Shown: positions 25,353 to 50,964, counted from the first letter of the stretch. The stretch: 64,000 nt of DNA from an uncultured Gemmatimonadales bacterium (GCA_963798915.1 CAWCVB010000007.1:143640-207639); one strand, 5' to 3'. The notes: a model not told the origin generated them from the letters alone. A program made the numbers and translations.

Positions 25353-25357
25353 CCAAC

Positions 25358-30828: not shown

Positions 30829-30886
30829 GGTCTCGGCGCCGTTCCCCGTCCTGGCCGAGCGGCGCCGCGGCCCCTGCGGGAAATAG

Positions 30887-33371: not shown

Positions 33372-33428
33372 ATGCGTTTCATGCTGATGATGAACGTGCC
33401 CAGGGGCACCGGCGACTACCAGATCGGC
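33372..33428 (+). pseudogene. N-terminal remnant of a YciI/DGPF-family gene
   Basis: GGAG RBS, MRFMLMMNVPRGTGDYQI, then a break into a 9-mer repeat (ggcaggacg). Confidence 0.5.
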
Positions 33429-33562
33429 GGCTCGGCAGGACGGGCAGGACGGCCGAGGCGGGCAAGATGGGCGGGCTCAACCACGCGCGTCATTGCGAGC
33501 CACCCCTTGCCAAATCTACTTTACCATGCAAAGTTAATTCCGGAACCTGGCACGAGGGGATC

Positions 33563-33964: not shown

Positions 33965-34013
33965 GTTAGGGGACTTGGTTCTCGACCCTGCCACCCTCGA
34001 CCCTCGACCCTCC

Positions 34014-34403
34014 ATGAAATACATGCTCCTGGTCTACATCGACCATGACCTCCTCGATGCCCTGCCGGCCGGCCAGTTCGACGGCATGATGCGCGACTGC
34101 CTCTCGCATGCGGACGCACTGAAGCACCGGGGGCAGCTGATCGAGTCGCAGATGCTGGAAGACGCGCCCGGCGCGCGCGCCGTCCGGGTCCGGAACGGCA
34201 AGCTCACCACCACCGACGGCCCCTTTGCCGAGACCAAGGAAGTGCTCGGCGGGTTCAACCTGATCGAGGCCGCGGACATGGCCGAGGCGACCCGGATGGC
34301 GGTGGAGAACTTTCCGTGGGCCAGTGTCGGCTGCATTGAAGTGCGGCCGGTGCGGGACATCGGGGCGGTGGCCGAGCGGGTAGGGTGGCGGGCGACGGCC
34401 TGA
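34014..34403 (+). CDS. YciI family (DGPFAETKE) protein
   Basis: MKYMLLVY...TTDGPFAETKEVLGGF...IEVRPV; preceded by a cgaccct heptamer repeat (33981-34012). Confidence 0.93.
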   Translation: MKYMLLVYIDHDLLDALPAGQFDGMMRDCLSHADALKHRGQLIESQMLEDAPGARAVRVRNGKLTTTDGPFAETKEVLGGFNLIEAADMAEATRMAVENFPWASVGCIEVRPVRDIGAVAERVGWRATA

Positions 34404-34603
34404 GTGCACTGACTATTCGATTTCACGCGCGCAGCATTTGATTGCCCCGCGAATTGTGCAAAGTCGCCGCGTTCGCTATGGAGTTCCCGGCTTCACCCAC
34501 TTCGCGGGTGATTGCCAGGCCCTCAAGCGCAACCAGCGTGCTGTTTCGAAAGGGATGCCGCAGCTTCAACCAGACACCTCAACGAAGACCTCGGTGGCTA
34601 TTC

Positions 34604-35409
34604 ATGACACGTTTGGGCCTTGGCCAGTTTCTGGGAGAGCGCGGCCGTTCCGCCACGGCGGGCGGATTTACTCTTGTGGAGATGCATGACACCCCGAGCG
34701 TGCCGGTACCGCGACATACCCACGAGGACCCACACTTCCTGGTCGTGCTGAGTGGCCATTATGACACGCGGCGATGAACATCCGCGGCCGGGCTGCTTCG
34801 GGAACGGTCCTTTTCAATCCGGCGGGTACCACTCACCAGGACCATTTTGTCACCTCGGCCGGTCGTTTCCTCACCCTGTCGATCGATCCGGAGCGCGCCA
34901 GGTTCCTGCGCGAGGTAACGCGGCATTCGCTGGAAGGCGATTCCATCGCCCTGAAGCAGCCGCGGGCTCGCTGGCTCGGCCGGCGGCTCAACGAGGAGCT
35001 CGGCGTGTCCGATCTCTTCCACCCTCGTGCTCGAGGGGTTGGCGCTCGAGCTCATCGGACAGGCCACGCGCGAGACGAGTACTGGCCGTGCCCGCCCTGG
35101 TTGGCTCGTCCGGGCGGCCGAACTGTTGACCGATCGTTGCGGCGAAGCCATCACTGTCGCAGAGATTGCGGGTATCGTCGGGGTTCATCCATGGCACCTC
35201 ACGCGCTGCTTCCGGGAGGCGTACGGCTGCACGCCCGGGCAGTACCAGCGCCAGTGCCGGGCCGACATGGCCTTGGCGCTTCTCAGGGATACCCGCCTCT
35301 CCCTCTCCGAAATCGCCCTCCGCTGCGGTTTCGCGGACCAGACTCAGTCACAAGGAGCTTCCGCAAGACCCTCGGCATTACGCCCGGAAGGTGCCGTTCT
35401 GCATATTGA
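34604..35409 (+). CDS. AraC-family regulator (cupin + HTH) with ~3 frameshifts (pseudogene or assembly error)
   Basis: VPRHTHEDPHF, FNPAGTTHQD, PGWL..AAELL, GVHPWHLTRCFR, LSEIALRCGFADQ, TRSFRKTLGITPG across frames. Confidence 0.8.
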
Positions 35410-35508
35410 GGCTGGTTGCTGGCAAGACGAATCCCCGACGCTTTCGTAGCTTGCGTATGCGCCGAGCCATCCTGGCCAGCGCATTCTGCACTGTGGAGGG
35501 AAGGACCG

Positions 35509-36474
35509 ATGCGGAGCCGGCGCGATTTCCTGACGACCCTGGCGTGGACCACGGGCGGTCTGCTGCTGTCGAACGCGTGCCACGGAATGCCGGGAACCCA
35601 AACCGTTCCGGCCCCGGACTGGGGTCAATCGGCGGCGGACCCGGAGATCGCCCTTACGCGTGTCACATTCCCGTCCGGCAGCGACACGGTGCCGGCGTTC
35701 TTCTCCCGGCCGAAGGCTCGGGGCCGCCACCCGGCCGTCATCGTGCTGCATGCCAACTGGCTGGTTGAGCCTTACATCCCCGATACCACCGCGTTGCTGG
35801 CCCGGGCCGGATTCGTCGGCCTCGCGATTGACCTCTTCCACATGTTCCCGCCGGTGGCATCCTGGGAGGAGGCGGAGCAGGTTCCCGGAAGGGTCATGCA
35901 GGACGCTTTGGACAAGGAGTTCACCGAGCCCCGGATGATCCGGAACATCAGTTCGGGTATCGACTATCTCCGCCGCCAGCCGTTCGTAGCCGACGGAGGC
36001 GTCGCCATCCTCGGCTTCTGCGGTGGCGGCTGGAATGCACTGCTCGCCGGCGCCCAGCTCGCCGACATCGCGGCCGTGATCGCCTTCTACGCGCCGCTCA
36101 CGATCAGCGATCCACAGCACCGGGCGCCGCAGGATCTGGTCGAATACATGCAGATGCCAATTCTCTTCCATCAGGCGCTCAAGGATCCGTTCGTGAAGCC
36201 GGCCGACGTGGATCGCTTCGAGGCGATGGTCCGGAAGGACGGCACGCCGTTCACGCGGTACCAGTATGACGCATTCCACGGCTTCTTCGCCTTCAACCGG
36301 GTACCGGAGTTCAACGCGAAGGACGCGACTCTGGCCTGGCAGCGAACGGTGCCCTTTCTGCGTCGGTACGCCGGCGCGCCGCTTAAGCACCGCGCTCTGG
36401 CACCGTCGCGCGACGCATTGGGAATGGCGGCTGACCGGTCGGAGCATACCGTGCTTCACGCCGGGCACACCTGA
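35509..36474 (+). CDS. Tat-exported dienelactone hydrolase family protein
   Basis: SRRDFL Tat motif; GFCGGG nucleophile, HQALKD, AFHGF. Confidence 0.9.
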   Translation: MRSRRDFLTTLAWTTGGLLLSNACHGMPGTQTVPAPDWGQSAADPEIALTRVTFPSGSDTVPAFFSRPKARGRHPAVIVLHANWLVEPYIPDTTALLARAGFVGLAIDLFHMFPPVASWEEAEQVPGRVMQDALDKEFTEPRMIRNISSGIDYLRRQPFVADGGVAILGFCGGGWNALLAGAQLADIAAVIAFYAPLTISDPQHRAPQDLVEYMQMPILFHQALKDPFVKPADVDRFEAMVRKDGTPFTRYQYDAFHGFFAFNRVPEFNAKDATLAWQRTVPFLRRYAGAPLKHRALAPSRDALGMAADRSEHTVLHAGHT

Positions 36475-36575
36475 GCTGTGGGCAGCGAGGCGTGGCGCGC
36501 AGCGACCGGGTGCTCGCGTGCCTCACCACCTGCCGGCGGACGGGGCGGCCGTCAGGTAGATAGAGAGGTGAAAGC

Positions 36576-37052
36576 GTGCACGTCAGCGAGATCATGCGGC
36601 TGGAGGAGCAGCTTCGGCTCACGCTCGAGGGCGAGGCCTGGCACGGCCCTCCTGTCCTCGAAATCCTGGCAGGAGTCTCGGCGGAGCAAGCCAGCAGCCA
36701 TCCCATTCCGGGTGCCCACAGCATCTGGGAGCTGGTCCTGCACATCGCCAGCGATTATGGGCTGGTGCTGCGCCGAATATCTGGAGACGGACACCCGCTC
36801 ACGCCGGACGAGAGCTGGCCTCCCTGTCCGCCGGCGACAGCCGACCACTGGCAGCAGGCGGTGGAAGCGCTCCGGCAGTCCAATCAGCAGCTCCGGGATG
36901 CGGTGCGCGCCTTTCCAGCCGAGCGGCTCGACCAGCCGCTGGTGCCCGAGGTCCCGTACACCGCGTACACGCAGTTCATCGGGGTGACCCAGCACAACCT
37001 GTATCATGCCGGCCAGATCGCGCTGCTGAAGCGAGCGCTGGCCGCCACCTGA
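36576..37052 (+). CDS. DinB family protein
   Basis: GEAWHGP, HSIWELVLHI, QHNLYHAGQIALLK. Confidence 0.92.
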   Translation: MHVSEIMRLEEQLRLTLEGEAWHGPPVLEILAGVSAEQASSHPIPGAHSIWELVLHIASDYGLVLRRISGDGHPLTPDESWPPCPPATADHWQQAVEALRQSNQQLRDAVRAFPAERLDQPLVPEVPYTAYTQFIGVTQHNLYHAGQIALLKRALAAT

Positions 37053-37227
37053 ACCGCAGCACCGTCTGCGGGAGGATTTCCTGACTCACCTCTGCGGCTC
37101 CCGCTTCCCCGCGTCCCTTGCGAGGTGCGGTTGCGACTGGTTGTCTCGAGAGAATGCAGCGTGCCCGCCCGGCGGCCCTCGGCTTCGCACCACTTCGCCG
37201 GCGGGGCGACGTCCTTGCGCTAAGTAT

Positions 37228-37695
37228 GTGACTTTCTACTTCGCTGCGGGACTTCTTGTCGCTGGGTGCTCACGGCCACCTCTGACGCTGACACCAGCTC
37301 CTTGCGGGTCAGCGGTCGTTGCGGACTCCGGATGGCCGAGCGTGCAGCTACCCGCACAAGCCGGATGGATCCGGCTTCCACCTTCGTACCGGCCGTATCC
37401 GAAGGATGACAGGACGAGTCTTGCGTGGATCGATCCGGGTCGGGGCTCCATTGTTCTTCAGCGCAGGCGTGAGCCAATGCAGCTGGGGAACGATGGCCTC
37501 ATGTGCCACTTTCGCTCGGGTATGTTTGACATCCATCTCGTCACAAGTGTCTCGTACAGCGATCCGGCCCCCGGATACGTAACCGTCGCCCAGTGGGAGC
37601 GCCGACCCGGCGAATGGCTCTCACTTCTTGGCACCGCGCAGGACAGAGTCACGCAGGCGGAGCAGGTGGCCGCCATCTATTCGTTGACTCTGTAG
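37228..37695 (+). CDS. Hypothetical lipoprotein (start uncertain)
   Basis: FYFAAGLLVAGC lipobox. Confidence 0.5.
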   Translation: MTFYFAAGLLVAGCSRPPLTLTPAPCGSAVVADSGWPSVQLPAQAGWIRLPPSYRPYPKDDRTSLAWIDPGRGSIVLQRRREPMQLGNDGLMCHFRSGMFDIHLVTSVSYSDPAPGYVTVAQWERRPGEWLSLLGTAQDRVTQAEQVAAIYSLTL

Positions 37696-37812
37696 GCAGC
37701 CACTCGCGACGGACGGGCCGGATGCGCTACGTGGCCGGCATCATTAGCCGGCGACCGCAGCCGGCGACCGCGCACCGCCAGCTGAGACGCAGGTCGTACG
37801 TTAGTCCACCAA

Positions 37813-38343
37813 ATGGAGGGCGTGCCATTCGTGCGCATCCAGGTCGACTCCGAGCCGGATGAGTCCGTGCGGGGTTGCGTGGCCATCGCTCAGTCGGTCT
37901 CGCATCCGGGCCGGGGACTCCTCCTGTTCTTCGCGCTCTACGGTGCCGTGCTGCTCAGCGCCTACTCCTTGACGCCCAGGACGCCAGTCCAGACGGTGTT
38001 CATCGCCTTCGGGGCCATCTTCTCGACCTACTACATCGTTCGCCTTGAGGGCTTGTCCCGGCTGCGCCGCCTCACTCGCCGTGACCCGCACGCCAACGAG
38101 ACCACCTTCATCGAGTTGACCGCTCACGGAGTACACACCTGGTGCGAGCATATTGATGCGCGCTACCCGTGGACCGATTTCGCCAGGGTCTCGGAAAACG
38201 CGGAGTTCTTCCTGTTTGCGCGCTCGTCTGGTTCGGGGACGGTCACTCCGAAGCGTGTGGTCACGGGACCGCTGGAGCTGGAGCTGCGTCAATGCGTCGC
38301 GGAATGGTGGGGCGAGATTCAGAGGCTGCCACGCTGGTGTTGA
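37813..38343 (+). CDS. YcxB-like membrane protein
   Basis: Two TMs followed by LTAHGV...YPWTDF..VSENAEFFLF....TPKR. Confidence 0.65.
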   Translation: MEGVPFVRIQVDSEPDESVRGCVAIAQSVSHPGRGLLLFFALYGAVLLSAYSLTPRTPVQTVFIAFGAIFSTYYIVRLEGLSRLRRLTRRDPHANETTFIELTAHGVHTWCEHIDARYPWTDFARVSENAEFFLFARSSGSGTVTPKRVVTGPLELELRQCVAEWWGEIQRLPRWC

Positions 38344-39131: not shown

Positions 39132-39344
39132 TCAGGCGCTGGTCTTGGTGACGTTTTCCGCCGCGGGGCCCTTCTGGCCCTGCACCACGTCAAATTCCAC
39201 CCGCTCGCCCTCGGCCAGGCTCTTGAAGCCCTCGGCCTGAATCGCCGAATGATGGACGAAGCAATCCTTCTGTCCGTCTTCGGGGGTGATGAAGCCGAAG
39301 CCCTTGGCGTCATTGAACCATTTCACTGTGCCGGTGGTACGCAT
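39132..39344 (-). CDS. Cold-shock protein (CspA family)
   Basis: [54 protein letters not shown]. Confidence 0.98.
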
Positions 39345-39738
39345 TGCATTACTCCTCATTGGTGTTGCGGCATCGGCGTGCGGCAAGGCCGGACGGACCG
39401 ACGACGCGTGCTCGTGACATTGCCTCACGAAAGGCTGCGGCTGCTCAGTCAGCATGCAAAAAGGGCCCCGGCGTATCTCCCGGGACCCTCGCAGCTCCTT
39501 GGATTTAGCATCGCGCCTTCGGCGCGACTGTCGCAGCCCTTAAGATACCCTCATGGCGAGCGTTTCACAAGGAGCGCAGCCATGGACCGGGAGAATGCGC
39601 ATGCAACACCGGGTATCGCCTGAGTGACACCGCCGCGTCCTAGCTCAACGAGTCCGCCGTCGGCCGGGGGATCCGGCGGAGTGGCATTGCACGGGATGAG
39701 CTGTCTGTCACCACCAAGCGGTGGACCAGGGAGATGGG

Positions 39739-39902
39739 CTGCAGCTGGATTATGTCGACTGTTGCTGATGCTTCAGCCATTCGGCGACGTGTACGGCGAG
39801 TGGCGCGCGATGGAAGAGTTGTAGCGTGCGGGCAAGGCCAGGGCGATTGGCATCGCCAACTTTCATCCCGACCGCATCATGGACCTCATGCTGCACAATG
39901 AA
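39739..39902 (+). pseudogene. Internal fragment of an aldo/keto reductase (2,5-DKG reductase-like)
   Basis: [53 protein letters not shown] with a frameshift and an in-frame TAG at 39822. Confidence 0.8.
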
Positions 39903-40034
39903 CGATGTGCTTGAGTTCGGCGATCCGGACCCTCGCAAGGTTTCCGTCTTGCTCTTGACATGCCGTGATGATACGGCAAGCTCTGGGGATTCAATACCAA
40001 GCTGCTGTTGGATGCTCCGGGATTACGCCGAAAC

Positions 40035-40420
40035 TCACGGGCGCCGGGCCGGCGTCTGCCACAAAACCTCCCGCACCATCCAGACTTCTCCGTACTTCGC
40101 GAGCAGCAGGTAGTCCGTGCCCCATGAGGCCACGACCTTGGCGCTGGCCGTCTGATCCTGAACGTCAAAAACGGTCACCTCGCGCGGCGCATCGGGCGGG
40201 GCGAACATCCTGCGCTCCCTCACGCTTCTGGTGTAAGCGATCGCCTCGGACCACGACATGGCCTCGCCGAGGTAGCGTGTCGAGTCGGACGACCACCAGA
40301 ACCCGAATTTTTGCAGGTCGGGGCTGACGCTGCGGCGGAGCCGGTTCTCGTCGCCCTGATAGAAGCCCTCGACGTAATCCAGGACCGCCCGCCGCATCCC
40401 GCCTCCGCATTCGTCGGGTA
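40035..40420 (-). pseudogene. NTF2-like (lumazine-binding-2 type) gene with disrupted or missing 5' end
   Basis: RRAVLDYVEGFYQGD, DQTASAKVVASWGTDYLLLAKY..W...VLWQ; no in-frame signal peptide upstream. Confidence 0.65.
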
Positions 40421-40483: not shown

Positions 40484-40538
40484 CGTCACTTGCCAAGTGA
40501 CGCCAGCGTGACAGCAGCGTCACGGGCGCCCGTATCCT
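40484..40538 (+). promoter_or_regulatory. Putative SARP/BTAD operator, copy 1, with candidate -10 (TATCCT)
   Basis: T[CG]AC cores at 40486, 40498, 40509 and 40520; 31/41 nt identical to 50009-50049; TATCCT 8 bp after the last repeat. Confidence 0.7.
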
Positions 40539-40575
40539 GCGCTGGGTAGCACGCCGCCGAGGAGGTCGAAGCAAG

Positions 40576-43500
40576 GTGACCCAATTCATGCACAGCAGGG
40601 CTATCCTCGCGACCGCGCTGATGGGCGCGCTCGTCGCCGCCGAAGGCTGCAATCGCACGTCAGGCGCGTCGGCGAGCGACCGAACGGCCATGGCGCTCGA
40701 GCAATGCGATCCGGCCCGCTACATCCCCTGCATTCCGCAGGTCGCCTTTCTTTCCGTCCCCCTTCATGATGCCGGTCTCTATCTCACCTACTCGAGCCAG
40801 TGGGCGCCCGGCGTGTCGGGCCATCGTCCGTGGGACGTCGGCTCGCTGGGACTCGGTGGCTGGTCCATCAATCCCATTCAGCGCTATGACACCGCCCAAC
40901 GGGTGCTCTTCAGCGGCGACGGGTCCTGGCGCATCGCGAGCAGCGTGCGACTTCCGTCGGATGAGCGAGTCGTTCCCAGCTACGACGGAGCACTCGCCTA
41001 CGTCTTCGATCCCGCTGGCCGCCATGTGCGCACCATGGACGGCCACCTCGGCACCGTGCTGCTTCACATCGAGTACGACGCTGTTGGCCGTCTGACCAGC
41101 ATCGACGGATCGCTCGACGGCGCTCCGGCGCACCTGTCGGTCCAGCGCGCACCCGACGGCACGGCGCGCGCCCTCGCGGGTACGGATGGCGGCACGACGT
41201 CGCTCACGATGGAGCCGCGTGGCCGGCTGACAGCAGTCACCAACCCCGCTGGCGCCACCACGCGTATCGACTGGGATGAGGGCGGACACGTCGTCTCGCA
41301 GACGGATCCGCTGGGCGGGGTTGCGCACTACAGCTACGATAACTCGGGACGAGTCGTCTCTTACGTCGACGCGGACAGCGTCGCGCAACGATTCGAGCGG
41401 CACGAATCGAGCAAGAGCCTCGAGATCCGTGTATCGACCACCCTCGGCCGACACTGGACGTATCGCGGGGAGCTTCTGGACGGCGCGATCCGCCGCACGT
41501 TCATCGATCGGGACGGTTCGATGAGCACCGAAACCGTCGACCCACGTGGCGCGCGTGTGATCAAGCTCGCCGACGGAACGAGCTACAGCGTCGGCGCGCT
41601 GGCGCATCCAGTCTGGAGCATGTCGGCGCCGATCTTGACACCCGTGGTGCAATCCCGCCCCGACGGAGTCACAGCCCGGCGCGAGGTGAAGTACGCGCTC
41701 CAGCCGCAGCGTGGTCTTCCCTACATGCTCGCGGGATCTGTCACCACCGTTATCAACGGTCGCGCGTGGAGGCAAGACTTCGATCCTCTCAGACGCACGG
41801 TAGTGCTGGTCGGCCCCGCCGGGCGTCGCACGCTCATCACGTACGATTCCGCAGGCCGTGTGCTGAGCCACTCGGCGCCAGGCAGACCGCCGGCGGCGTA
41901 TGCGTACGACGCCGCCGGGCGGATGGTGAGCGAGACCATCGGGGCGGGTCAACTCGCCCGCACCACCCGCTACGTCTACGACGCGAACACCGGCCGGATC
42001 ACTACCACCCTTCCCGACGGTGTCGTCGAGCACGCGACCGTCGACAAAGCTGGACATATGGTGCAGGCGTCCGCCGGAGACGGCTCGACGGCGATTGCAG
42101 CCTATGACGGTGGCGATCGGCTCATCCAGCTCCAACCCGCCGGAGGGGTGAGCTTCACCCTGGGCTCGAGCCCCGGCGGTCGGCCCACCGCGTTCGTGCC
42201 ACCTGTCGTGCCGGGTGATTCGTCCATTGAGTCGCGCTCCTACGATCCCGATGGACAACTGACGCGGATTGTCGGATCGGGTGGGCGCGCCGTGATGCTT
42301 TCGTACGATGACGCGGGACGGGTGAAGCGCTGGAGCTTCGATCAGGGCACGCGAACCATTTTCTACGACCCGCGAACCGGCGCGACAACTCGGGCCACGG
42401 ATCCGAGCGGCGTGACCACCACCTACGGTTACGCGGGCGACCTCGCCGATCGCCTGACCTGGTCCGGGCCAATTGCTGGTTCGGTCGGCGTCACACTCGA
42501 TGCGAACGGACGTCCCGCGGCCGAAGCGGTGAACGGGGCGGACACGCTGCGCTTCGCCTACGACGGATCGGGCTTGCTCACGAGGGTCGGACCGCTGACG
42601 CTTACGCGCGACTCCGCGAGTGGGCTGGTCACGGCGACGAAGCTCGGGGTGGTCGAGACCCGGCAGACATTCGACGCGAACGGATCGCTCATGCGCGCAA
42701 CGACGACCGTGCGTGGCGACGTGGTGTTCGAGCTGCGCTACACACGCGATGTGCTCGGACGAATCGCGAGCGTCAGTCAGACGACCGGCCACGGGAAGCC
42801 GTCGCGTACCGCCTACGCGTACGATGCGGCCGGTCGGTTATCTGCCGTTCGGGAGAACGGCCGACCGGCGGAGAGCGAGGGCTATGATCCGGCCGGGAAT
42901 CGTGTCGCGGTGAACCGCCCGAGCGCCACCTTAAAGGCCGCCTACGACGATCGCGATCGCGCGATGACGTGGGGCTCGCGTCACTACTCATGGTCGCCCG
43001 ACGGCAGCCTGACTCGGGTCATCGAGGATGCGAGCGCGACGTCGTTCACCTACGACGACTTCGGCGCGCTTCGCACGGCCACGCTTCCCGACGGGCGGGA
43101 GGTCAGCTATCTCGTTGATGCCGACGGGCGTCGTGTGGGCCGCCGGGTCGGGCGGAACATCGTCGCGGGATATCTCTATCGGCTGGATGGCTTCGTCGCC
43201 GCGGAAACAGATCCGAAAGGCAGGGTGGTCTCGCGATTCGGCTACGATGATCTGGGCCATCTCGCGCTGGTGGAGCGTGGCGGCATTGCGTACCGCGTGA
43301 TAACAGATGCGGTGGGGAGCCCACTCCTGGTCATCGATTCGCGGAATGGCAACATTGCCGAGGCGATGGCGTACAGCCCGTGGGGACGCATGATGCAGGA
43401 CACGGCGCCGGGGTTCACTCCGTTCGGGTTCGCGGGCGGATTGCGGGATCCGGACACCGACCTGCTCCGCATGGGAGCACGCGACTACGAGCCAGCGACG

Positions 43501-45789
43501 GGGCGCTGGACGGCGGCCGATCCCCTGCGATTCGCCGGCGGCGATGCGAACTTGTACCGCTATGCGGCGGGCGATCCGGTCAACCGAGTCGATCCACGCG
43601 GAATGTGTATTTCGCTGAAGGAGGTGGACATCGCCATAACTCGCGGCTTGGCGTCTCACTTACCGGAGATGAAGGGGGAAAACGACCTGTGTCCTGACGC
43701 AGCGATCGGCACACTCACGAATCCCGCGACGCCGCAGAACAACAATCCACCTCCACCTGGCGATCCGCCGGCGGCGGGGAACCCACCAGGGAACGGCAGT
43801 CCCTTCGATTGGGGATGCAAGGGAACTATATGCGTGGGTCCGGACGGTCTGGGCTGCGAGTTCGGAAGCTGTCACAAGAACCCGTTCGGATTCACCTGCG
43901 ACGCGGTGTATTGCCACGGGCCAGGCAATGAGTGGTGTTTCTACTGCTCCATGGGCGACCCTCATCTGCAAGCTGGAAACGGCGCTCGCTTCGACCTTCA
44001 GGCCGCCGGCGAATTCCTGATGGTGACCTCGCGCGATGGCGACCACGTCGTTCAGGCGCGGCAGGAGCCGTATGTCCAGGGAGCTCCGGTAACGGTCAAC
44101 AGCGCCGTCGCCGCCAATCTGAGCGGCGATCACGTGGGCGTCTACGCCACCGAACCTGATTTCCTGCTGGTGAATGGCGTACCCGTCCGGCAGCTCGATA
44201 TCGAGAGACGCTTGCCGCACGGCGACTCGATCGAGCGCCACGGTGGTCTTGTGATCCTCCGCTGGCGCGACGGCAGTCGACTGACCGTCAGCCGCGTCGT
44301 GAGAAGCTTGAATTACGCTTTCGTTCCCGGCCCGGGTGTCGGACCGCTGCGCGGCCTGCTTGGCGGAGCCGGCATCGACTCGCCGCACACGCTCACCAGC
44401 CGCGATGGCGCTGTCCTCCGACTCTCCGATCCCACCTTCGGGAAGAAGCTCTATCAGCAGGTCGGCAACAGCTGGCGGATCAGGCAATCCGAGTCGCTGT
44501 TCCACTACTGGCCCGGCGAAAGCACCGCGACCTTCACGAACGTGAGCTTCCCAGCCAAGCTGGTGACGGCCGCCTCGCTCTCCGCTGCGGTGCGGTCGAA
44601 GGCTGAAGCGATCTGTCGCGCCGTGGGCGTGCACACTCGGCCCGTGCTCGACGACTGCATTCTGGACGTCGGGATCACCGACCTGCCCGCCTTCGCCGCG
44701 GCATCGGTCGCCTTGGCGGCGAGCTTACCTCCGCGTCGCGCGCCGTCCGCCACCGCGTCGTCCTCGATCGCATCGCCCTCCAGCGCATTCGCCATCACGC
44801 TCGGCGATTCCGTATCTCCGAATCATCCAGCCAGGGGCGCGGGGATCATCTTGCATGCCGGGGAGAAGCAGTCGTATGCGTTTTCCGCCCCTGCGGGAAC
44901 GAGCATCTTCGTCGAGGTTGGGCCGTGTCAGGGCGCGACGCCCACATTCGAGGTGCTCGCACCGGACAGCACGCCGCTCGGCGGCACCTTCGGTTGCACC
45001 GGGTTCGGTCCGGTGCGCCTCTCCGCTGCCGGCGTTCATCGCATCGTCGTCGCCACCCTTGACACGGGAATGGTCCGCTACCGCCTTACCCTTCGCATCG
45101 CGCCGTTCGACCAGTACGCGATCCGCATCGGTGACACGGTCTCTCCCGACCATCCCGCTCCCGGTGCAGGCATCATCACCAGCCCCGGGCAGAAACAGTC
45201 CTATGCATTCGCCGGCGTGGCGGGCCAGGCCGTGTATGTGGGAGTCGGCCCGTGCGAGGGCGCCAACCCGAGCTTCGACCTCCGCGCGCCGGACGACAAA
45301 TTGCTCGGGGGCGTAATCGGCAACTGTCACGCCGATATCGGCCGGCAGGTCCTGCCCGTGACGGGCACATACCACATCGTCGCAAGCACGGTCAACAAGA
45401 CCGATGTCTCACGCTACAGCTTCTTTGTGCACACCGTTCCCGGCGATCAGCATTTCCCGGTGCGACTGCCGATCACCGTCTCTCTCGATGGTCCGGCTGC
45501 CGGATCCGGGCGCATGCGCACACAGGGGGTTCAGCAGTTCTACGACTTCAGCGCCAGCCCTGGGACGGTGGTCCATGTCGAGAGTCGCTGCAATCCGGCG
45601 TGCTCACATCTGGCGGTCCGGGTGACCCGAGCGGGCGACACTGGCGAAGGCCAGTTTCTCGATCTGAATTATCTCAGACACGATTGGACGTTGCCGCCGG
45701 GCGGCAACTACACGATCCAAGTGCGCTCGACCGGGTTCACTGGTACATACGGCTTCACGGCGTCGCCGGCTGTGACGCGGCGTCGCTGA
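40576..45789 (+). CDS. Secreted teneurin-like RHS/YD-repeat protein with Cys-rich, VWD (GDPH) and 3 PPC-like C-terminal domains
   Basis: Signal or lipoprotein-like N-terminus; many YDxxGR repeats; RHS core PFGFAGGLRDPDT...RDYEPATGRWTAADP...NLYRY...DPVNRVDPRG; GDPHL..G..FDLQAAGEF; three GAGI.....Q.Y.F repeats. Confidence 0.92.
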   Translation: MTQFMHSRAILATALMGALVAAEGCNRTSGASASDRTAMALEQCDPARYIPCIPQVAFLSVPLHDAGLYLTYSSQWAPGVSGHRPWDVGSLGLGGWSINPIQRYDTAQRVLFSGDGSWRIASSVRLPSDERVVPSYDGALAYVFDPAGRHVRTMDGHLGTVLLHIEYDAVGRLTSIDGSLDGAPAHLSVQRAPDGTARALAGTDGGTTSLTMEPRGRLTAVTNPAGATTRIDWDEGGHVVSQTDPLGGVAHYSYDNSGRVVSYVDADSVAQRFERHESSKSLEIRVSTTLGRHWTYRGELLDGAIRRTFIDRDGSMSTETVDPRGARVIKLADGTSYSVGALAHPVWSMSAPILTPVVQSRPDGVTARREVKYALQPQRGLPYMLAGSVTTVINGRAWRQDFDPLRRTVVLVGPAGRRTLITYDSAGRVLSHSAPGRPPAAYAYDAAGRMVSETIGAGQLARTTRYVYDANTGRITTTLPDGVVEHATVDKAGHMVQASAGDGSTAIAAYDGGDRLIQLQPAGGVSFTLGSSPGGRPTAFVPPVVPGDSSIESRSYDPDGQLTRIVGSGGRAVMLSYDDAGRVKRWSFDQGTRTIFYDPRTGATTRATDPSGVTTTYGYAGDLADRLTWSGPIAGSVGVTLDANGRPAAEAVNGADTLRFAYDGSGLLTRVGPLTLTRDSASGLVTATKLGVVETRQTFDANGSLMRATTTVRGDVVFELRYTRDVLGRIASVSQTTGHGKPSRTAYAYDAAGRLSAVRENGRPAESEGYDPAGNRVAVNRPSATLKAAYDDRDRAMTWGSRHYSWSPDGSLTRVIEDASATSFTYDDFGALRTATLPDGREVSYLVDADGRRVGRRVGRNIVAGYLYRLDGFVAAETDPKGRVVSRFGYDDLGHLALVERGGIAYRVITDAVGSPLLVIDSRNGNIAEAMAYSPWGRMMQDTAPGFTPFGFAGGLRDPDTDLLRMGARDYEPATGRWTAADPLRFAGGDANLYRYAAGDPVNRVDPRGMCISLKEVDIAITRGLASHLPEMKGENDLCPDAAIGTLTNPATPQNNNPPPPGDPPAAGNPPGNGSPFDWGCKGTICVGPDGLGCEFGSCHKNPFGFTCDAVYCHGPGNEWCFYCSMGDPHLQAGNGARFDLQAAGEFLMVTSRDGDHVVQARQEPYVQGAPVTVNSAVAANLSGDHVGVYATEPDFLLVNGVPVRQLDIERRLPHGDSIERHGGLVILRWRDGSRLTVSRVVRSLNYAFVPGPGVGPLRGLLGGAGIDSPHTLTSRDGAVLRLSDPTFGKKLYQQVGNSWRIRQSESLFHYWPGESTATFTNVSFPAKLVTAASLSAAVRSKAEAICRAVGVHTRPVLDDCILDVGITDLPAFAAASVALAASLPPRRAPSATASSSIASPSSAFAITLGDSVSPNHPARGAGIILHAGEKQSYAFSAPAGTSIFVEVGPCQGATPTFEVLAPDSTPLGGTFGCTGFGPVRLSAAGVHRIVVATLDTGMVRYRLTLRIAPFDQYAIRIGDTVSPDHPAPGAGIITSPGQKQSYAFAGVAGQAVYVGVGPCEGANPSFDLRAPDDKLLGGVIGNCHADIGRQVLPVTGTYHIVASTVNKTDVSRYSFFVHTVPGDQHFPVRLPITVSLDGPAAGSGRMRTQGVQQFYDFSASPGTVVHVESRCNPACSHLAVRVTRAGDTGEGQFLDLNYLRHDWTLPPGGNYTIQVRSTGFTGTYGFTASPAVTRRR

Positions 45790-45916
45790 CGCGTTCCACA
45801 GGGTTTCCCGCGCGCGCGAGCCGCAACCCGGAGTAAAACCCATGAGGTGGCCGATGCGGACAGAGTCAATTGCACTCCAACCAGGAGTTGCGTGCGCGGA
45901 CAGTGCCCTCCGATAT

Positions 45917-46990
45917 ATGCGCGGGCATCGCGGGCTGGCACTGGTGCTGCTTTGTCTCGTGGCGGCGGCATGCACGGGCAGGACACGAGACCGCGCCTCG
46001 GGGCAGGCCGTCGCGTTGCAAGGGAAAGGCGACGCGACACGTGACGACCCCTGCTCGCTGCTCGACGTGAGCGACGTTGCTGCGGCCATTGGCCCACTGG
46101 CGGGACCGCCGTATCGCGGCGACCCAAACCCCGATCCCTCGAGCGACGTGTGCCGATACGAGACAAATGATTACCGCCGCATTCAGCTCTCTGTGGATTG
46201 GACGGGCGGCGCGATGGCGATGAAGATGGTGGCCCTCGGCCGGCGCCTCGGGGACAAGGCGCTCCAGGCGGAGACACAGACTGGTATCGTTCTCAAGGCG
46301 GGCGATACGCTGCGCGGCGACTGGGATCAAATTGCCTTGTCGCCAGCCTCCTGCTGCTCACTCGACGCGCTCCGGGGCGACGCGGACGTGCAGCTCGACT
46401 GGACGGGGACGCGCCTGACCATCGCCGCCGCGGGCGCGCTGCTCAATTCGGCCATCAGGCGGCTGAACCATCGGCTGGCGATTGACGGCACGGCCGGCGA
46501 AGCAGCGGCGAAGCAGCGTTGGGCGGCAATGGCGCAAGACAGCGCGCTCGACGCATGCGGGCTCGTCTCCCAGCAGGACGCCGAGGCGATTATCGGAACC
46601 CCGCTCTCGGTGCCGCCGGACCATGGGTCGGCGCAAGAGGGCCCGCGCCGCACGTCCTGCTATTATCGCACGCCGATGCCGAACGCGCCGAACGCGGCAT
46701 TCGTGTACGAGATCGACCTGAAGGAGTGGAGCGATGCGCACGCGAAGTTCGCGGAGGACGAGTTCGTCATCAACGGCGCCGTGGGCGGGATCCGACGTCA
46801 GTGGTCGGGCGGCGACTCCACCACGCCCGCCGAGGCCCCCGAACCGCCGGGCCCCTGGGACGAGATCGGGTCCTCCGTGAGTGGGGGTTACCAGGCGGTC
46901 AAGGGCCCGCTGCTGCTGGCGGTGTCCACCAACGGAGATCATACCAGAGCACGGGCGCTTCTGGCCAAGGCAGTCAGCGCATTGCAATGA
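45917..46990 (+). CDS. Lipoprotein with two Cys-motif (DUF3558-like) domains
   Basis: LLCLVAAAC lipobox; DPCSLLDVSDVAAAIG..CRY and DACGLVSQQDAEAIIG..CYY. Confidence 0.75.
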   Translation: MRGHRGLALVLLCLVAAACTGRTRDRASGQAVALQGKGDATRDDPCSLLDVSDVAAAIGPLAGPPYRGDPNPDPSSDVCRYETNDYRRIQLSVDWTGGAMAMKMVALGRRLGDKALQAETQTGIVLKAGDTLRGDWDQIALSPASCCSLDALRGDADVQLDWTGTRLTIAAAGALLNSAIRRLNHRLAIDGTAGEAAAKQRWAAMAQDSALDACGLVSQQDAEAIIGTPLSVPPDHGSAQEGPRRTSCYYRTPMPNAPNAAFVYEIDLKEWSDAHAKFAEDEFVINGAVGGIRRQWSGGDSTTPAEAPEPPGPWDEIGSSVSGGYQAVKGPLLLAVSTNGDHTRARALLAKAVSALQ

Positions 46991-47001
46991 AAAGTCTCTG
47001 A

Positions 47002-49950
47002 TTAGCCGCCTGTCCTACGTGCGCGGGCCTGCTTGAGCGCTGCGACGCGACGCTGGATTGCTTCGATGCGCGGGCGGAACTCGGGATCGGCCGAGCGCCA
47101 CGCGGAAAGGACGCGCTGGTAATGAACGAGCGCGCTGTCCGGCTCGGCGGCGCGCTCGAACGCCTCGCCAAGGACGGCGTGCAGATCGGTGTAGGTGAGA
47201 TAATAGTTCGACGCCTCGATCGGACCGCGCAGCGGCGCGCGGAGCACCGGAATGGCGTCACGCGGCCTTCCCTCGGCCAGGAGTGCCTTCCCCAACTCGA
47301 GATTCACCCGGCTGTATCCCTCGATCGGCGCAACGAATGCCCGGCGGAACTCTCGCTCCGCATCGGCTGTCCGACCCCGGGCTGCGACGAGGAGCCCGCG
47401 CACGTAGTGCTGAAGCACCTGGTCGCGGAAATACGCGCTGTGCGGAGCCCATGAGGCGAGGCTGTCGGCGAGCGCTCCCAATCGTGCCGTGTCTCCGGCC
47501 GCGGCGAGCGCTGTGGCTGCCTGTGTGGTCATCCAGATTTGATGGCGCGCGACGAGCCCCGGCGCGTCGGCGGTAAACGTCGGCGACGATCGCCATCTGT
47601 AATTGCCGATTGAGTCGAACAATGCTGCAGCTTCATGAAAGCGGCCCATCTCGAACATCACTTGCGCCACGGCAACGGCGTCGAGCGACCTGGGGGTGTT
47701 GAAGCTGGGTAGCTCGCCTTCGGTGGTTCGTACCATGCGCTCCGCGGTCGCGAGCGCATCGCGCAGGCGCCCCTGGTTCCGCAGACTGATCACGAGCCAC
47801 CACAGCGCTTCGCCGCGCTTGGCCGGGTTCCCGTTCTGTGCCCGATCCGCCAGCATCCGATCCGCGACGGCGAACTCCCCCGAGCGGACGGCGATCAGGA
47901 CGCGGGGCATCACCGCATCGTATCCGCTGGGAGCGACGCGTTCGGCGCGTTGCTCCGCGGTGAGCGCGCTATCGTACCGTTCCTCCCGCCCGAGTATCGA
48001 TGTCAATGCCCACCATGCCGCCACCGCGTTGGGTTGCATGCGCGTCCAATCGCGCGCCGTTCGTTCAGCGGCTGCCACGGAATCCGCGGACAGGTACGTC
48101 GCGAGGAGCATGTACAGGGCGTCGCACGCGCGGCACCAGGGACTGCGGCCGATGAGGCTCAGCGAATCCAGGCGAACCGCACGACGGAGATGTGGCAGCG
48201 CGCCGAGAAAATCGCCGCTCCAGGATCTTGCGCGACCGAGCGCCAGTTCGCTGCCCGGCTCGTCCGGGTACCGCGTGACGAGTGATTCCGCGATGGCGAG
48301 TTGCGCCGGATCATTCGTGGTGTAAGCCCACGTCTGCCGAATGATCACGCGTTCACGATCGGACACTCGGTCGGCGAGGCGGAGGGCGAGCGCGAGATCG
48401 CGGCGCGAGGCGGGTCCGTCGTTCGCGACCTCGCCAAGCCCGGCGTAGTAGGCGGTCATCGCGAAGCTCGAATCCTCGGCGAGGGCCGCATGAAAGAGAT
48501 GGACGGCGGCCTGCACGTCGCTCTGATAGAACCGGCGGAGCCCTTCCTCGTACAGGCGCCGCGCGGCCAGCGATGTCGTCGTGACGCCGGCCAGCGGTTG
48601 CACCGGCGCGCGGAGACCGAACTCGGCCGCCACCTGCGCCGTGGCGCGATCCGCGAGCTCGAACACCGTGCTCGCGTCGAACGAATGGGTCCGACCCGCC
48701 GCGCCCGTGGCGAGTTGGACATGGCGCAGTTCGAGCCGGAGTGTATGATCGGGAGCGCGAGAGAGCACGGCCTCGAGGAGCTCGTCGGCACCGGCACGCC
48801 GCGCGGCGTCCGAGATTGCCGACGGCGTCTCCTCGCGCACGCCAAGCTGGCCCAGCAAGTCATAGATCCTGGCATGGCTCACGACGCGCAGCCCGGGAAC
48901 GCGCGCCAGATCGGTCGCCAGCAAATCGGCGAACGTCCGCACGCTCGACCCCGTATCCGCGCCGCTTGGATCCTGAATCCATCCGACCGCCACCACGGGC
49001 GACGAGGGCCTGCCGTGGGTCCACGTTGCCACCGCCGCGATCATGAGTGTGGCCGCGATGATCGCTCCCGCCACGTACGAGCCGCGACGCAACCACGCGC
49101 GTCGCGATGCTCCGTGCGTCGCGAGCTCCGGTCCGTCGGGCAAAGCCTCGGGTGACACCGCGGGCCCGGCAGTGTCTTCCCCTCTGGCAGTGCTTGCCGA
49201 TGAGGGCGCAGCCGCGGGTGATGTGGACGCTCGCTTCCTCACCGCCTCGAGCATCGATCGCGTTTCCGCCGAGGGCTCGACGTCGAACTCCGCTTTGAGT
49301 CGGTGCGCGAACTCCGTGTACACGCGCAGTGCGCCGTACCGGTCGCCTTGAGTGTCCAAAACTGCCACCAGGCGACGGAGCAATTGCTCGTCGTCCGGAG
49401 CGAGTTGGCTGGCGTAGCGCATCCAGTGCGCCACCTCGCTCGCGCGACCTCGGCGCTCGTTCGCGTCGGCGAGCTTCGTTGCCGCGTCAATCGCCCGATG
49501 CAAGAGTTCCGCACGCGTCGTATCGATCCAGTGGTCAAATTCCGGCGCCACGTCGGTGATGTGGAATCCGGGGAGGAATCCGCCCCGGTATAGCACCAGT
49601 GCGTCCTCGAATCGACTCTGGTCGAGCAACTCCCTGAACGCGCACACGTCGCACCGGAGGGCGTCAAGGGCGAGCCCGATCTCTTCTCCCCCGCGATTGA
49701 CGACAACGTGCTCGCCTATCGAGCGGCGTAAAAAGTAGAGCGACTGCCGCAGTGCCTGACGTGCCTGCGCCTGGCTGAACTCTGGCCAGAAGAGCGCGAA
49801 CAACTGGTCGCGGCGCTGAAAGCCGCGCGCGGATTCCACCGCGAGATAGCTCAGCAGCGCCAGTCGTTTCGGCTGGGCGAGCACGGGTCGCAGCTCGCGG
49901 CCGTCGGTTCCCCGCAGCGCGAGCGTGCCCAACATGTCGAGGTGAATCAT
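47002..49950 (-). CDS. Membrane-anchored SARP/BTAD transcriptional regulator with TolB-N-like and TPR extracytoplasmic region
   Basis: QPKRLALLSYLA, RDQLFALFWPE, ALRQSLYFLRR, CDVCAF, LYRGGFLPG, EPSAET; TM helix YVAGAIIAATLMIAAVATW; TTSLAARRLYEEG and TPR-like helices. Confidence 0.9.
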   Translation of the reverse strand: MIHLDMLGTLALRGTDGRELRPVLAQPKRLALLSYLAVESARGFQRRDQLFALFWPEFSQAQARQALRQSLYFLRRSIGEHVVVNRGGEEIGLALDALRCDVCAFRELLDQSRFEDALVLYRGGFLPGFHITDVAPEFDHWIDTTRAELLHRAIDAATKLADANERRGRASEVAHWMRYASQLAPDDEQLLRRLVAVLDTQGDRYGALRVYTEFAHRLKAEFDVEPSAETRSMLEAVRKRASTSPAAAPSSASTARGEDTAGPAVSPEALPDGPELATHGASRRAWLRRGSYVAGAIIAATLMIAAVATWTHGRPSSPVVAVGWIQDPSGADTGSSVRTFADLLATDLARVPGLRVVSHARIYDLLGQLGVREETPSAISDAARRAGADELLEAVLSRAPDHTLRLELRHVQLATGAAGRTHSFDASTVFELADRATAQVAAEFGLRAPVQPLAGVTTTSLAARRLYEEGLRRFYQSDVQAAVHLFHAALAEDSSFAMTAYYAGLGEVANDGPASRRDLALALRLADRVSDRERVIIRQTWAYTTNDPAQLAIAESLVTRYPDEPGSELALGRARSWSGDFLGALPHLRRAVRLDSLSLIGRSPWCRACDALYMLLATYLSADSVAAAERTARDWTRMQPNAVAAWWALTSILGREERYDSALTAEQRAERVAPSGYDAVMPRVLIAVRSGEFAVADRMLADRAQNGNPAKRGEALWWLVISLRNQGRLRDALATAERMVRTTEGELPSFNTPRSLDAVAVAQVMFEMGRFHEAAALFDSIGNYRWRSSPTFTADAPGLVARHQIWMTTQAATALAAAGDTARLGALADSLASWAPHSAYFRDQVLQHYVRGLLVAARGRTADAEREFRRAFVAPIEGYSRVNLELGKALLAEGRPRDAIPVLRAPLRGPIEASNYYLTYTDLHAVLGEAFERAAEPDSALVHYQRVLSAWRSADPEFRPRIEAIQRRVAALKQARARRTGG

Positions 49951-50008
49951 GAGGACTCTCTTACGGACGGCCACTCTCGTCCTGGCGCCCAATGTTACGT
50001 TCGCGGCC

Positions 50009-50064
50009 CATCACCCGGCAAGTGACGGCGGCGTCACGCCGGCGTCACGCCGCGCGCGCAGTGT
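50009..50064 (+). promoter_or_regulatory. Putative SARP/BTAD operator, copy 2
   Basis: T[CG]AC cores at 50011, 50023, 50034 and 50045 (same 12/11/11 spacing as copy 1); between the regulator and the divergent secreted-protein gene. Confidence 0.7.
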
Positions 50065-50220
50065 GACGGGATTGTTCCCTGACGGCGCCAGCGCCGCCGA
50101 ATGCCTGCCAGGTTGACATGGCGATCCCGGCCCGGCCATCCTGTCGAGAGCCCCCGAAACGGCGCTTGGATCTCCCTGGTCCTTCTTCCTCACCCTCACC
50201 CATCACCCGGCGGAGTCCCA

Positions 50221-50709
50221 ATGAATGCGCTACGACGCAGTGCCCTATCGCTCTCAGCTTCCCTCGCCCTATGCGCCACCGCAGCGGCCCAGGCTCCCGC
50301 CGGTGACGCGTGCAGCCTCCTCACCACCGACGAAGTCGGTGCGGTCCTCGGCGTCAAGGTATCGCGGCAACCAGTTGCCAGCAGCAAGACATCCTGCACC
50401 TTCACTCCGGGCAGCGATCACAGCCTGGCAGCCCGCATGGTCACGGTCACGCTGACGCCGCTGAAGGTGTTCGAAGCCACGAAGCAGTCGTACCGTGAGA
50501 TGACGCCGGAGCCCGCGAGCGGCATCGGCGACGAGGCCCATTATCAGAAACTGGCGACAAAGCATCTGAAGGCCATTTCCCTGTATGTTCGGAAGGGCGC
50601 CGGAGCATTCGTGCTGCGGGTCAACCCCGGACGTGCCGGCAAGGAAACCGACGCGCAAGTAGAAGCGATGGAGAAGACCCTGGGGCAACAAGCCGCCGCG
50701 CGGCTCTAG
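50221..50709 (+). CDS. Secreted Cys-motif (DUF3558-like) protein
   Basis: Signal peptide ending AAAQA; DACSLLTTDEVGAVLG...SCTF...SGIGDEAHY; GGAG RBS. Confidence 0.75.
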   Translation: MNALRRSALSLSASLALCATAAAQAPAGDACSLLTTDEVGAVLGVKVSRQPVASSKTSCTFTPGSDHSLAARMVTVTLTPLKVFEATKQSYREMTPEPASGIGDEAHYQKLATKHLKAISLYVRKGAGAFVLRVNPGRAGKETDAQVEAMEKTLGQQAAARL

Positions 50710-50768
50710 TCCAGGTGTTCTGCCGGATCACTCGTTTCGGATCCCGCTGGCGACGGGCTCCCGGACCG

Positions 50769-50870
50769 ATCGCGATCGTGGGCCGGATACCGGACGCGTT
50801 TCGCCACCAGCAGCGGGGACCAACCGATGTGCTGATCATGCACCGGGAGCTCTCACCCGACACCACCTGA
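50769..50870 (+). pseudogene. C-terminal remnant of a GNAT acetyltransferase
   Basis: IAIVGRIPDAFRHQQRGPTDVLIMHREL..* resembles the GNAT C-terminal G.IP.AFRH...G.D..IM.R motif; no upstream part. Confidence 0.6.
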
Positions 50871-50964
50871 GACGCGCTTGCGGTGAAACCCCGATGTCCA
50901 TGCCACCTGCGTACGGCTCATCCAAGCCCCGCTGCTCGCGAGGGGCGGGCAACACGCCGAATGG

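Follow-up and report, generated by a model that had tools for sequence, protein, structure and literature searches.

The closest described counterpart of the regulatory arrangement considered here is the AfsR-PhoP pair of Streptomyces coelicolor, in which a SARP and an OmpR/PhoB-type regulator act on overlapping 11-nt repeats at afsS, pstS and phoRP. According to the available part of PMC6988585, the PHO boxes of Streptomyces are built from 11-nt direct-repeat units with a GTTCACC core, and AfsR, itself a SARP, competes with PhoP in binding to those of afsS, pstS and phoRP; the accessible text of PMC10936776 gives as the rule for SARPs a spacing of 11 or 22 bp between the direct repeats and of 8 bp between the 3' repeat and the -10 element, and describes SARP protomers bound side by side on repeats that overlap the -35 element. 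A likeness to this pair, recognised from the sequence, is found in a 64,000-nucleotide stretch of DNA from an uncultured Gemmatimonadales bacterium (GCA_963798915.1 CAWCVB010000007.1:143640-207639), hereafter the window, in which a SARP-headed membrane regulator (P0003) stands beside arrays of the type seen at pst and phoB promoters. The regulator belongs to a four-gene block with the order RHS-VWD gene (+), lipoprotein gene P0002 (+), regulator gene P0003 (-) and secreted-protein gene P0004 (+), an order proposed in an earlier, sequence-only reading of the same DNA and borne out by six-frame open reading frames and Pfam. AfsR is a cytoplasmic SARP-NOD-TPR protein controlled by a kinase, whereas P0003 is without a NOD, is predicted to cross the membrane once and would carry its TPR region outside; likewise, the host of AfsR is an actinomycete, whereas the window organism appears to belong to the Gemmatimonadaceae. 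Tentatively, and with a likelihood just short of even, the arrays are read as PhoB-type boxes that are probably shared by the SARP head, so that the block would be a co-regulated envelope module within the phosphate-starvation response and not a private circuit.

Two arrays frame this reading, neither of which is assigned to a strand. Site A (40485-40523) has the form GTCAC-12-GTGAC-11-GTGAC-11-GTCAC and is placed in the 178-bp region between the divergent Lumazine_bd_2 (-) and RHS (+) genes, and site B (50010-50048) has the form ATCAC-12-GTGAC-11-GTCAC-11-GTCAC, with a fifth GTGAC at 50063-50067, in the divergent region between the ATG of the regulator (49950, -) and that of P0004 (50221, +). 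The shared periodic motif that had been noticed before both plus-strand units is thus real and takes the form of two four-unit sites with 77% identity along 39 nt. Within the window, sites A and B alone match the strict pattern GTSAC-N6-GTSAC-N6-GTSAC, and none of 100 shuffles gives any match; in the whole 3.3-Mb genome it is again matched by these two sites only, and scrambled control pentamers yield no strict triples. A candidate -10 element, TATCCT (40533-40538, +), lies 9 nt past the last unit of site A and is followed by GAGGAGG at 40560-40566, ahead of the GTG start of the RHS gene at 40576, so that the predicted geometry of site A fits the SARP rule. On the minus strand, TAACAT occurs 12 nt after the ATCAC unit of site B and fits a promoter of the regulator gene, and a scan for promoter and terminator consensus sequences returned nothing above shuffles. 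The position of both arrays, which are intergenic between divergent genes and have a SARP-like geometry, makes it likely that the RHS operon is co-regulated with the regulator/P0004 region, and their control through the shared array appears well supported.

The motif had been taken as private to the block, a view that does not hold, since relaxed GT(G/T)AC units with a phasing of 11 or 22 bp are present as well at the porin-pstS and PAP2/GT4 promoters of the host genome and, in its relatives, at pstS and phoB-like genes. In a relaxed scan (at least three GTSAC units at 10-12 bp spacing), the host genome (17 contigs, 84.8% complete) gave four chains, namely site A, site B, one at C5:223580 that is probably fortuitous and one on contig C14, against 0-2 chains for six control pentamers of similar count. 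The C14 chain, with five perfect and two near units over ~75 bp, occupies a 116-bp divergent region (L223 3737-3852) flanked by the genes for a PAP2 phosphatase (-) and a GT4 glycosyltransferase (+); a PhoR/PhoB-like pair is 1.2 kb away from it. Similarly, the region upstream of the porin-like open reading frame of the porin-pstS operon reads GTGAC-11-GTGAC-19-GTTAC-11-GTGAC-22-GTGAC; a GTNAC pair at 11 or 22 bp is present in just 37 of 20,000 random 150-nt segments of the genome.

The phosphate-regulon cluster on C14 extends over ~24500-38000 (L223 being C14:30500-38000) and comprises the porin-like gene with pstS and the genes for an fn3 protein, PAP2, GT4, a PhoR/PnpS-like kinase and a PhoB-like regulator. 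Within it, a one-mismatch match at C14:25583 was rejected as a phased array, since the sequence there, which separates pstS from the gene that follows, is an inverted repeat with a period of 7 nt; at C14:25540-25700, three copies of GTCACGG face CCGTGAC copies, probably as an intercistronic hairpin and not a phased operator.

A search of 170 other genomes of the same bacterial family returned 15 sites with the strict pattern, distributed over 11 genomes, compared with a single site for a reversed-pattern control. Three of the 15 sites are located 46-160 bp upstream of genes for SARP regulators with a transmembrane helix (L225, L228, L239), two precede pstS (one duplicated sequence in G416), one lies 52 nt before a PhoB-like gene (L226), one is beside a phoB orthologue on its 3' side (L237), one precedes the orthologue of the C14 fn3 gene (L232) and one a PAP2 gene (L236), with the remaining six at other or unrecognised genes. 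Where pstS has an upstream region of its own, GT[GCT]AC units at 11/22-bp steps were read by eye at L240, L242, L245, L246, L263 and L268. As a separate observation, contig C2 of genome G442 carries strict arrays at 23068 and 36697 (L234, L239), 13.6 kb apart, and 160 bp separate one of the two from a membrane SARP gene downstream, a layout that recalls the one in the window.

The regulator P0003 is encoded on the minus strand at 47002-49950 (open reading frame 47002-49992, 996 codons, likely ATG at 49950), with a winged helix-turn-helix (wHTH) and BTAD head at ~49183-49950, a predicted transmembrane helix at 49021-49077 and TPR matches at 47104-48561. The BTAD domain is matched by PF03704 (E 5e-17) and the TPRs by Pfam at residues 478-963. 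A profile built from 20 heads of the family finds EmbR (2fez) with an E value of 6.7e-14 over positions 5-255, which cover wHTH and BTAD, and AfsR (8hvr/8jke/8k60) with an E value of ~1e-11; phmmer searches of the PDB with the single P0003 head and sensor region gave TPR or noise matches alone, and the head needed the profile in order to be placed. The helix is a hydrophobic 19-mer at residues 306-324 with an arginine pair (RR) just before it, and the TPR region, preceded by a TolB-N-like part, is therefore assigned to the outside of the cell. P0003 is, by this predicted topology, an N-in, C-out SARP, which agrees with the SARP/BTAD head and ToxR/CadC-like architecture proposed for it earlier. 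It shares with ToxR and CadC a cytoplasmic winged-helix head, one transmembrane helix and a putative periplasmic sensor, and differs from them in that its head is of the wHTH+BTAD (SARP) kind.

Relatives of P0003 are named in their source records as 'BTAD domain-containing putative transcriptional regulator [Gemmatimonadaceae]' or 'SARP family activator/TolB-like protein', and at least 389 clusters match its head at 1e-20. At the same threshold, 144 of the 171 genomes of the window's bacterial family, a tally that includes three genomes flagged as unpublished, contain a match, usually with several paralogues; the P0003 family is greatly expanded within this bacterial family. Direct 5-mer triples at 11/11 bp are present upstream of their own start in three of 30 other family members, against a background of seven in 20,000 random segments. 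These triples (L095, L108 and G000 C2:172600-172689) are composed of the units GTCCC, TCACC and GTCCG and stand just before the start codons. The presence of differing phased units before paralogues suggests a putative autoregulation that is specific to each paralogue. A second association concerns P0002, in that five of 18 P0002-like loci in the family, from five genomes and four genera, have a regulator of the P0003 family as their divergent neighbour or as a member of the same divergon, so that the P0003 family is, by gene arrangement, paired with DUF3558-like genes inside this bacterial family, a link separate from the one with RHS genes described below. The pairs of a regulator and a two-module DUF3558 lipoprotein are those of L210, L216, L217, L221 and L222; at L221 and L222, GTTAC-N6-GTAAC is located between the genes, and a five-gene operon of exported proteins is present.

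In the preferred mechanism, phosphorylated PhoB would bind sites A and B under phosphate limitation and turn on RHS-P0002 and the regulator gene, perhaps also P0004. The SARP head would probably bind the same arrays and add an extracytoplasmic input, by analogy with AfsR at the PHO boxes of Streptomyces; the head is homologous to the DNA-binding domain of PhoB and the repeats have the same geometry. As GT(G/T)AC units phased at 11/22 bp mark porin-pstS, PAP2/GT4 and the pstS and phoB genes of relatives, the block is probably co-regulated via Pho-box-type arrays. Since the motif also stands at phosphate genes, PhoB is no less likely than the SARP regulator to be their binder, and the module would not be self-contained. 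The self-contained sense-and-respond module envisaged by the sequence-only reading is not supported, on this ground and on that of the absence of the regulator from 24 other RHS-VWD loci.

Several observations weigh against the PhoB-type reading. Site B is 173 nt away from the start of P0004, which makes P0004 the weakest target, and the polarity of the arrays, given by the 12-bp step, faces the minus-strand genes at both sites, an orientation that suits the regulator promoter and not the RHS promoter. The response regulator on C14 has PhoB as its best NCBIfam match, at 245.7 bits, under the cut-off of 296.2. In 28 relatives, the GTSAC density upstream of pstS is hardly raised (4.4 vs 3.6 per kb), and chains of at least two GTSAC units were found by script in only two of the 28 pstS loci, most of these genes being preceded by a porin gene with their promoter outside the stretch examined; the arrays of L242, L245, L246 and L268, which include GTTAC units, were read by eye. 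Moreover, we know of no precedent for an RHS adhesin with a role in phosphate starvation.

Further points on the same side favour an alternative, in which the adjacent membrane SARP would have the GTSAC arrays as an operator of its own; its TPR region would sense the outside, and it would activate itself, P0004 and RHS-P0002, while the arrays at phosphate genes would belong to PhoB and be similar in look only. This alternative is considered unlikely, albeit with an appreciable share of the probability. The SARP head is confirmed by profile and the regulator adjoins the arrays; site A ends 9 nt before TATCCT, compared with the 8 bp of the SARP rule in the accessible text of PMC10936776; and the 12-11-11 layout and 77% identity common to sites A and B are absent from the pst and PAP2/GT4 arrays. 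The regulators of L225, L228 and L239, which are preceded by GTSAC arrays of similar layout 46-160 bp upstream, rank first, fourth and fifth of 33 in wHTH identity to P0003, while other P0003 paralogues bear arrays of GTCCC, GTCCG and TCACC, each with its own unit and rare in random segments, as given above. Autoregulation by the SARP is favoured because of these GTSAC-marked near relatives and the paralogue arrays of other units. However, in the 24 other RHS-VWD loci (14 from species genomes and 10 from Joint Genome Institute (JGI) metagenomes), no homologue of the P0003 head or sensor was detected by tblastn at 1e-2, and the strict motif occurs once in the 14 genome loci, in a position unrelated to the RHS gene. 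Furthermore, the loci of the 29 best full-length P0003 homologues have no GTSAC motif and no P0002/P0004-like gene within 1.5 kb, and the same pentamer with the same phasing recurs at porin-pstS, PAP2/GT4, pstS and phoB-like promoters, with no sequence feature found that separates the two kinds of array. The synteny of the four genes, on which the sequence-only reading had made its proposal depend, accordingly breaks down for the regulator, the BTAD regulator and an RHS-linked motif each being found in 0 of 24 loci.

With the PhoB-type reading thus retained as the preferred account of the arrays, the product that they would control can be compared with three groups of described proteins. The RHS/YD toxins, which include the Rhs effectors of type VI secretion systems (T6SS), TcB-TcC and WapA, share with the window protein the YD shell, the Rhs core and the DPxGL-type aspartates, and WapA is exported by a Sec-type route, as predicted for the window protein. 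Teneurins share the TEN_YD-shell profile and a large folded C-terminal part, which in the window protein is probably outside the shell for binding. The D assemblies of mucins and von Willebrand factor (VWF) provide a fold match to MUC2, MUC5AC, MUC5B and VWF and the GDPH motif, present in 23 of 32 orthologues, at which autocleavage may occur here. In contrast to the toxins, the tail of the window protein is conserved, folded, Cys-rich and ~727 aa long, without a toxin domain found; a PAAR, a VgrG and a T6SS were likewise not found, and the small neighbouring proteins are exported and not cytoplasmic. Unlike in teneurins, the tail is, by its model and Foldseek matches, VWD-C8-like and PPC-like and not of the ABD/Tox-GHH kind, the aspartates are kept, and the protein is bacterial and Sec-exported; unlike in mucins and VWF, the assembly is fused behind an RHS shell, and TIL/E modules were not identified in it.

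The RHS gene (40576-45789, +) encodes 1737 aa, and its N-terminal 1010 codons (40576-43605, +) comprise a signal peptide with Cys25, a YD/RHS shell and an Rhs-associated core. The RHS/YD repeats are matched by PF05593 (E 1.4e-40) and TIGR01643 (E 4.8e-40), the core by TIGR03696 at aa 933-1010 (74.7 bits, cut-off 32.5), and the teneurin YD-shell profile PF25023 matches aa 692-982 (80.9 bits, cut-off 50). The aspartates of self-cleavage, D982 and D1006, are invariant in 32 of 32 aligned RHS-VWD sequences. The protein is, as predicted from its signal peptide, exported; it may be a lipoprotein; and by its profile matches it is one that builds a YD shell and retains both aspartates used in C-terminal self-cleavage. 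Two further RHS-repeat genes are present in the same genome, on contig C6 (~8900-11000, frame of 1527 aa) and on C11 (~86200-87900, frame of 817-841 aa).

The tail, comprising the 727 aa after the core, starts with a Pro-rich linker predicted to be disordered and Cys-rich beta-hairpins (aa 1011-1122; 43606-43941, +), continues with a VWD and helical C8-like assembly (aa 1123-1383; 43942-44724, +) that has GDPH at 43954-43965 (aa 1127-1130), and ends in three beta-sandwich domains of ~110 aa each, of the PPC, collagen-binding or CUB-like type (aa 1402-1731; 44779-45768, +). Pfam on the tail alone returned nothing useful, with PF00094 (VWD) unmatched even at E values up to 5, and phmmer of the tail against PDB sequences gave TPR or noise matches alone. 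A search with only the tail found 92 proteins, of which 52 are other RHS clusters (1448-2007 aa) sharing it; among these, PF00094 is matched in 12 and PF04151 (PPC) in one, and PF00094 is matched in many non-RHS proteins that align with the same tail region. The source names of the RHS-VWD relatives point to metagenome-assembled genomes of Terriglobales, 'Acidoferrales', Gammaproteobacteria, Limnocylindrales and Pseudonocardiales. The AlphaFold model of the tail, with a predicted local distance difference test (pLDDT) score of 81.8, consists of 66 disordered residues, Cys-rich hairpins, a beta-rich domain with helices and the three beta-sandwiches. Foldseek aligns it with MUC2 (6tm2_C, E 2.5e-9) and with the D3 assembly of MUC5AC (8qsp_A, E 7.3e-8, TM 0.52 to target), and also with MUC5B and VWF (7pmv_B), the D assemblies being matched over ~280-335 columns at E values of the order of 1e-8 to 1e-9; the beta-sandwiches resemble the ColG collagen-binding domain (5iku) and CUB domains. 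The GDPH histidine is present in 32 of 32 aligned RHS-VWD sequences. Of the label of a teneurin-like RHS-VWD protein given by the sequence-only reading, the fold matches, the GDPH motif and the PF00094 matches in homologues speak for the VWD part, which receives no Pfam call on this protein itself.

Over 31 orthologues, sequence identity to the window protein averages 54% in the core and shell, 55% in VWD/C8 and 44% in the PPC part, and the least conserved parts are the linker (27%) and the Cys-rich piece (37%). No enzymatic, pore-forming or toxin domain was found in the tail by Pfam, phmmer against the PDB or Foldseek. The tail is the reverse of a polymorphic toxin tip, in that its VWD/C8 part shows the same degree of conservation as the shell, and as modelled it looks like an adhesin-like module. 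Together with the absence from the 84.8%-complete genome of any detected PAAR (PF05488) or T6SS sheath/VipB (PF05943) gene, and of a PAAR in the RHS protein, this agrees with the proposal that adhesion, and not T6SS toxicity, may be the role of the protein. The disulfide-rich tail would stand outside the shell as in teneurins, or be released, and bind a surface or polymer. Neither RHS-VWD fusions nor membrane SARP-TPR regulators were found described in a search of the available literature, and in the available part of a 2025 paper it is another protein that is called 'the first bacterial example' of vWD (PMC12419801).

The two small proteins of the block are related to DUF3558. P0002 (45917-46990, +; open reading frame 45842-46990, likely start 45917) is a lipoprotein with the lipobox LVAAAC and two DUF3558-like modules, whose D-x-C-x-L motifs are at 46046 and 46550, and P0004 (50221-50709, +) is a secreted, single-module DUF3558-like protein of 162 aa with conserved Cys31 and Cys59. 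The open reading frame of P0004 spans 50101-50709, its signal peptide starts at the likely ATG at 50221, and the resulting length agrees with that of its 27 relatives (150-184 aa, two invariant cysteines). Pfam DUF3558 (PF12079) scores P0004 at 17.6 bits, below the cut-off of 34.1, and does not match P0002; among relatives, PF12079 is found on 14 of the 27 of P0004, and DUF3558 is matched by 31 of 32 aligned relatives of P0002 (E up to 0.01), whose two-module family comprises 269 representative clusters. In the protein atlas, the nearest clusters of P0002 come most commonly from the phylum Gemmatimonadota. The paralogous Cys domain that had been claimed for the two proteins is weak in pairwise comparison (BLASTP E 0.079, near noise; a probability of 46% when hhalign sets the P0004 family against P0002 alone), and the claim holds at the superfamily level because the profiles of the two families align with a probability of 95.6% (E 1e-8).

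A model of P0004 (pLDDT 85.6) has as its nearest fold the extracellular sensor domain of PknH (4esq; Z 9.7, root-mean-square deviation 3.0, 129 aligned residues), followed by Dip2269 (3v7b, Z 9.7), which we take to be a DUF3558 member, TiME (7cu8, Z 9.5) and the immunity protein Tsi3 (4luq_C, Z 9.3), with Z scores from the VIA comparison; Foldseek alone gave nothing below E 0.001 for this model. P0002 and P0004 are exported proteins of the DUF3558 superfamily with a PknH-sensor/Tsi3-like fold, in subfamilies of their own below the cut-off of Pfam. They may serve as periplasmic keepers or partners of the RHS tail. A comparable setting is the SigM/ESX-4 regulon of Mycobacterium abscessus, for which the available portion of PMC13491425 reports small exported DUF3558 proteins co-expressed with secreted effector-like proteins, their function being left open. 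It differs in using ESX, whereas the window proteins belong to a Sec/RHS setting in a diderm and, as own subfamilies, fall below the Pfam cut-off.

A hidden Markov model (HMM) of DUF3558-like neighbours, built without window sequences and seeded from L015, L018, L021, L022 and L115, detects open reading frames within 600 bp of the RHS gene in eight of the 24 RHS-VWD loci (L056, L122 and L191 being new) and in none of 129 generic RHS loci (1.79 Mb), which include a few truncated ones, such as L124, with the tail unseen. The same HMM recognises P0004 (2.5e-17) and P0002 (5e-7) in the window, and a DUF3558-like family is, by gene neighbourhood, a specific companion of RHS-VWD genes across several phyla. 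Within the window's own phylum, no RHS-VWD orthologue was found in 400 other sampled genomes, with five partial, VWD-only matches. The acidobacterial RHS-VWD genes are flanked by a different family of lipoproteins of ~240 aa, without a Pfam match and with three cysteines invariant in their alignment (L013 6824-7555 and 9125-9841; L014 4950-5738 and 7846-8517; L017 5609-6502), with an OmpA/zinc-ribbon protein nearby. A LuxR-type STAND regulator (AAA_16-TPR-GerE) is located near the RHS-VWD gene at L021 5997-8795 (titled Chloroflexia) and L023 730-3498 (titled Saccharimonadales). Different lineages seem, from such neighbourhoods, to attach different regulators to the RHS-VWD gene.

These partners and the intact RHS core would also suit a polymorphic RHS toxin, in which either the tail as a whole or the 118 variable residues that separate the self-cleavage sites would act in the envelope of neighbouring cells and P0002 and P0004 provide immunity. 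Both catalytic aspartates are kept, small exported genes adjoin RHS-VWD genes in the eight loci just mentioned, the fold of P0004 resembles that of Tsi3, a periplasmic T6SS immunity protein, and the protein is least conserved in the linker and the Cys-rich stretch. The likeness to Tsi3 is unspecific, however, because the same fold matches sensor domains such as that of PknH, with a Z score of 9.7; searches for an enzymatic or pore-forming domain gave none, toxin tips vary but VWD/C8 equals the shell in conservation, and neither PAAR nor VipB was detected in the genome at its 84.8% completeness. Moreover, a folded, Cys-rich tail of ~660 residues is far larger than any enclosed cargo known to us, and a toxin is deemed quite improbable. 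Lastly, that the repeat similarity is fortuitous or the remnant of a local duplication without a regulatory role is very improbable, for although GTSAC is fairly common (7894 occurrences in the genome) and the chain at C5:223580 may be due to chance, the shuffles give no strict match, the scrambled pentamers give no strict triple genome-wide, both sites are intergenic and divergent at promoter distance, and in other genera arrays are seen again at the promoters of regulator, pstS and phoB genes.

At its most extended, the preferred PhoB-type reading would give teneurins a bacterial counterpart in the RHS-VWD proteins, with a Sec-exported YD shell by which an adhesive VWD-C8/PPC module of the mucin type is displayed or released. 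The RHS aspartyl and GDPH cleavages would free the variable, Cys-rich 118-residue stretch as cargo, the DUF3558 proteins would be dedicated periplasmic keepers, and the whole would be switched on by phosphate hunger via Pho-type boxes, at which the membrane SARP would read an outside signal and compete or cooperate with PhoB. Taken jointly, these propositions are doubtful and, as a conjunction, improbable.

The surroundings of the block are those of an accessory region. The upstream neighbour is an intact Lumazine_bd_2 gene (40035-40397, -) and nothing was recognised in 50710-50964, so that the remnants that had been described on both flanks are not sustained. A cold-shock domain gene (39132-39335, -) is situated just upstream of the block, and open reading frames within 39249-40327 gave no match in a family search. 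The G+C content is 63-69% across the region, with no compositional break. In three congener genomes, no RHS-VWD gene, no P0002, no close P0003 and not even the flanking M1 peptidase was found, and the entire neighbourhood is therefore regarded as accessory; the flanking Lumazine_bd_2 gene has a match in one of the three, at just 35% identity.

RHS proteins have been studied almost solely as carriers of variable toxins, and here they are represented by a widespread subfamily of soil bacteria with a conserved, adhesin-like tail. This RHS-VWD subfamily spans Acidobacteriota, Chloroflexota, Gammaproteobacteria and Gemmatimonadota and is accompanied by DUF3558 as a specific exported partner family. 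At the same time, the block offers a concrete case of a membrane-anchored SARP beside Pho-box-type arrays, in a phylum whose regulation is essentially unstudied. If it is true that PhoB and the SARP head share these sites, cross-talk of the AfsR-PhoP type would reach far beyond the actinomycetes.

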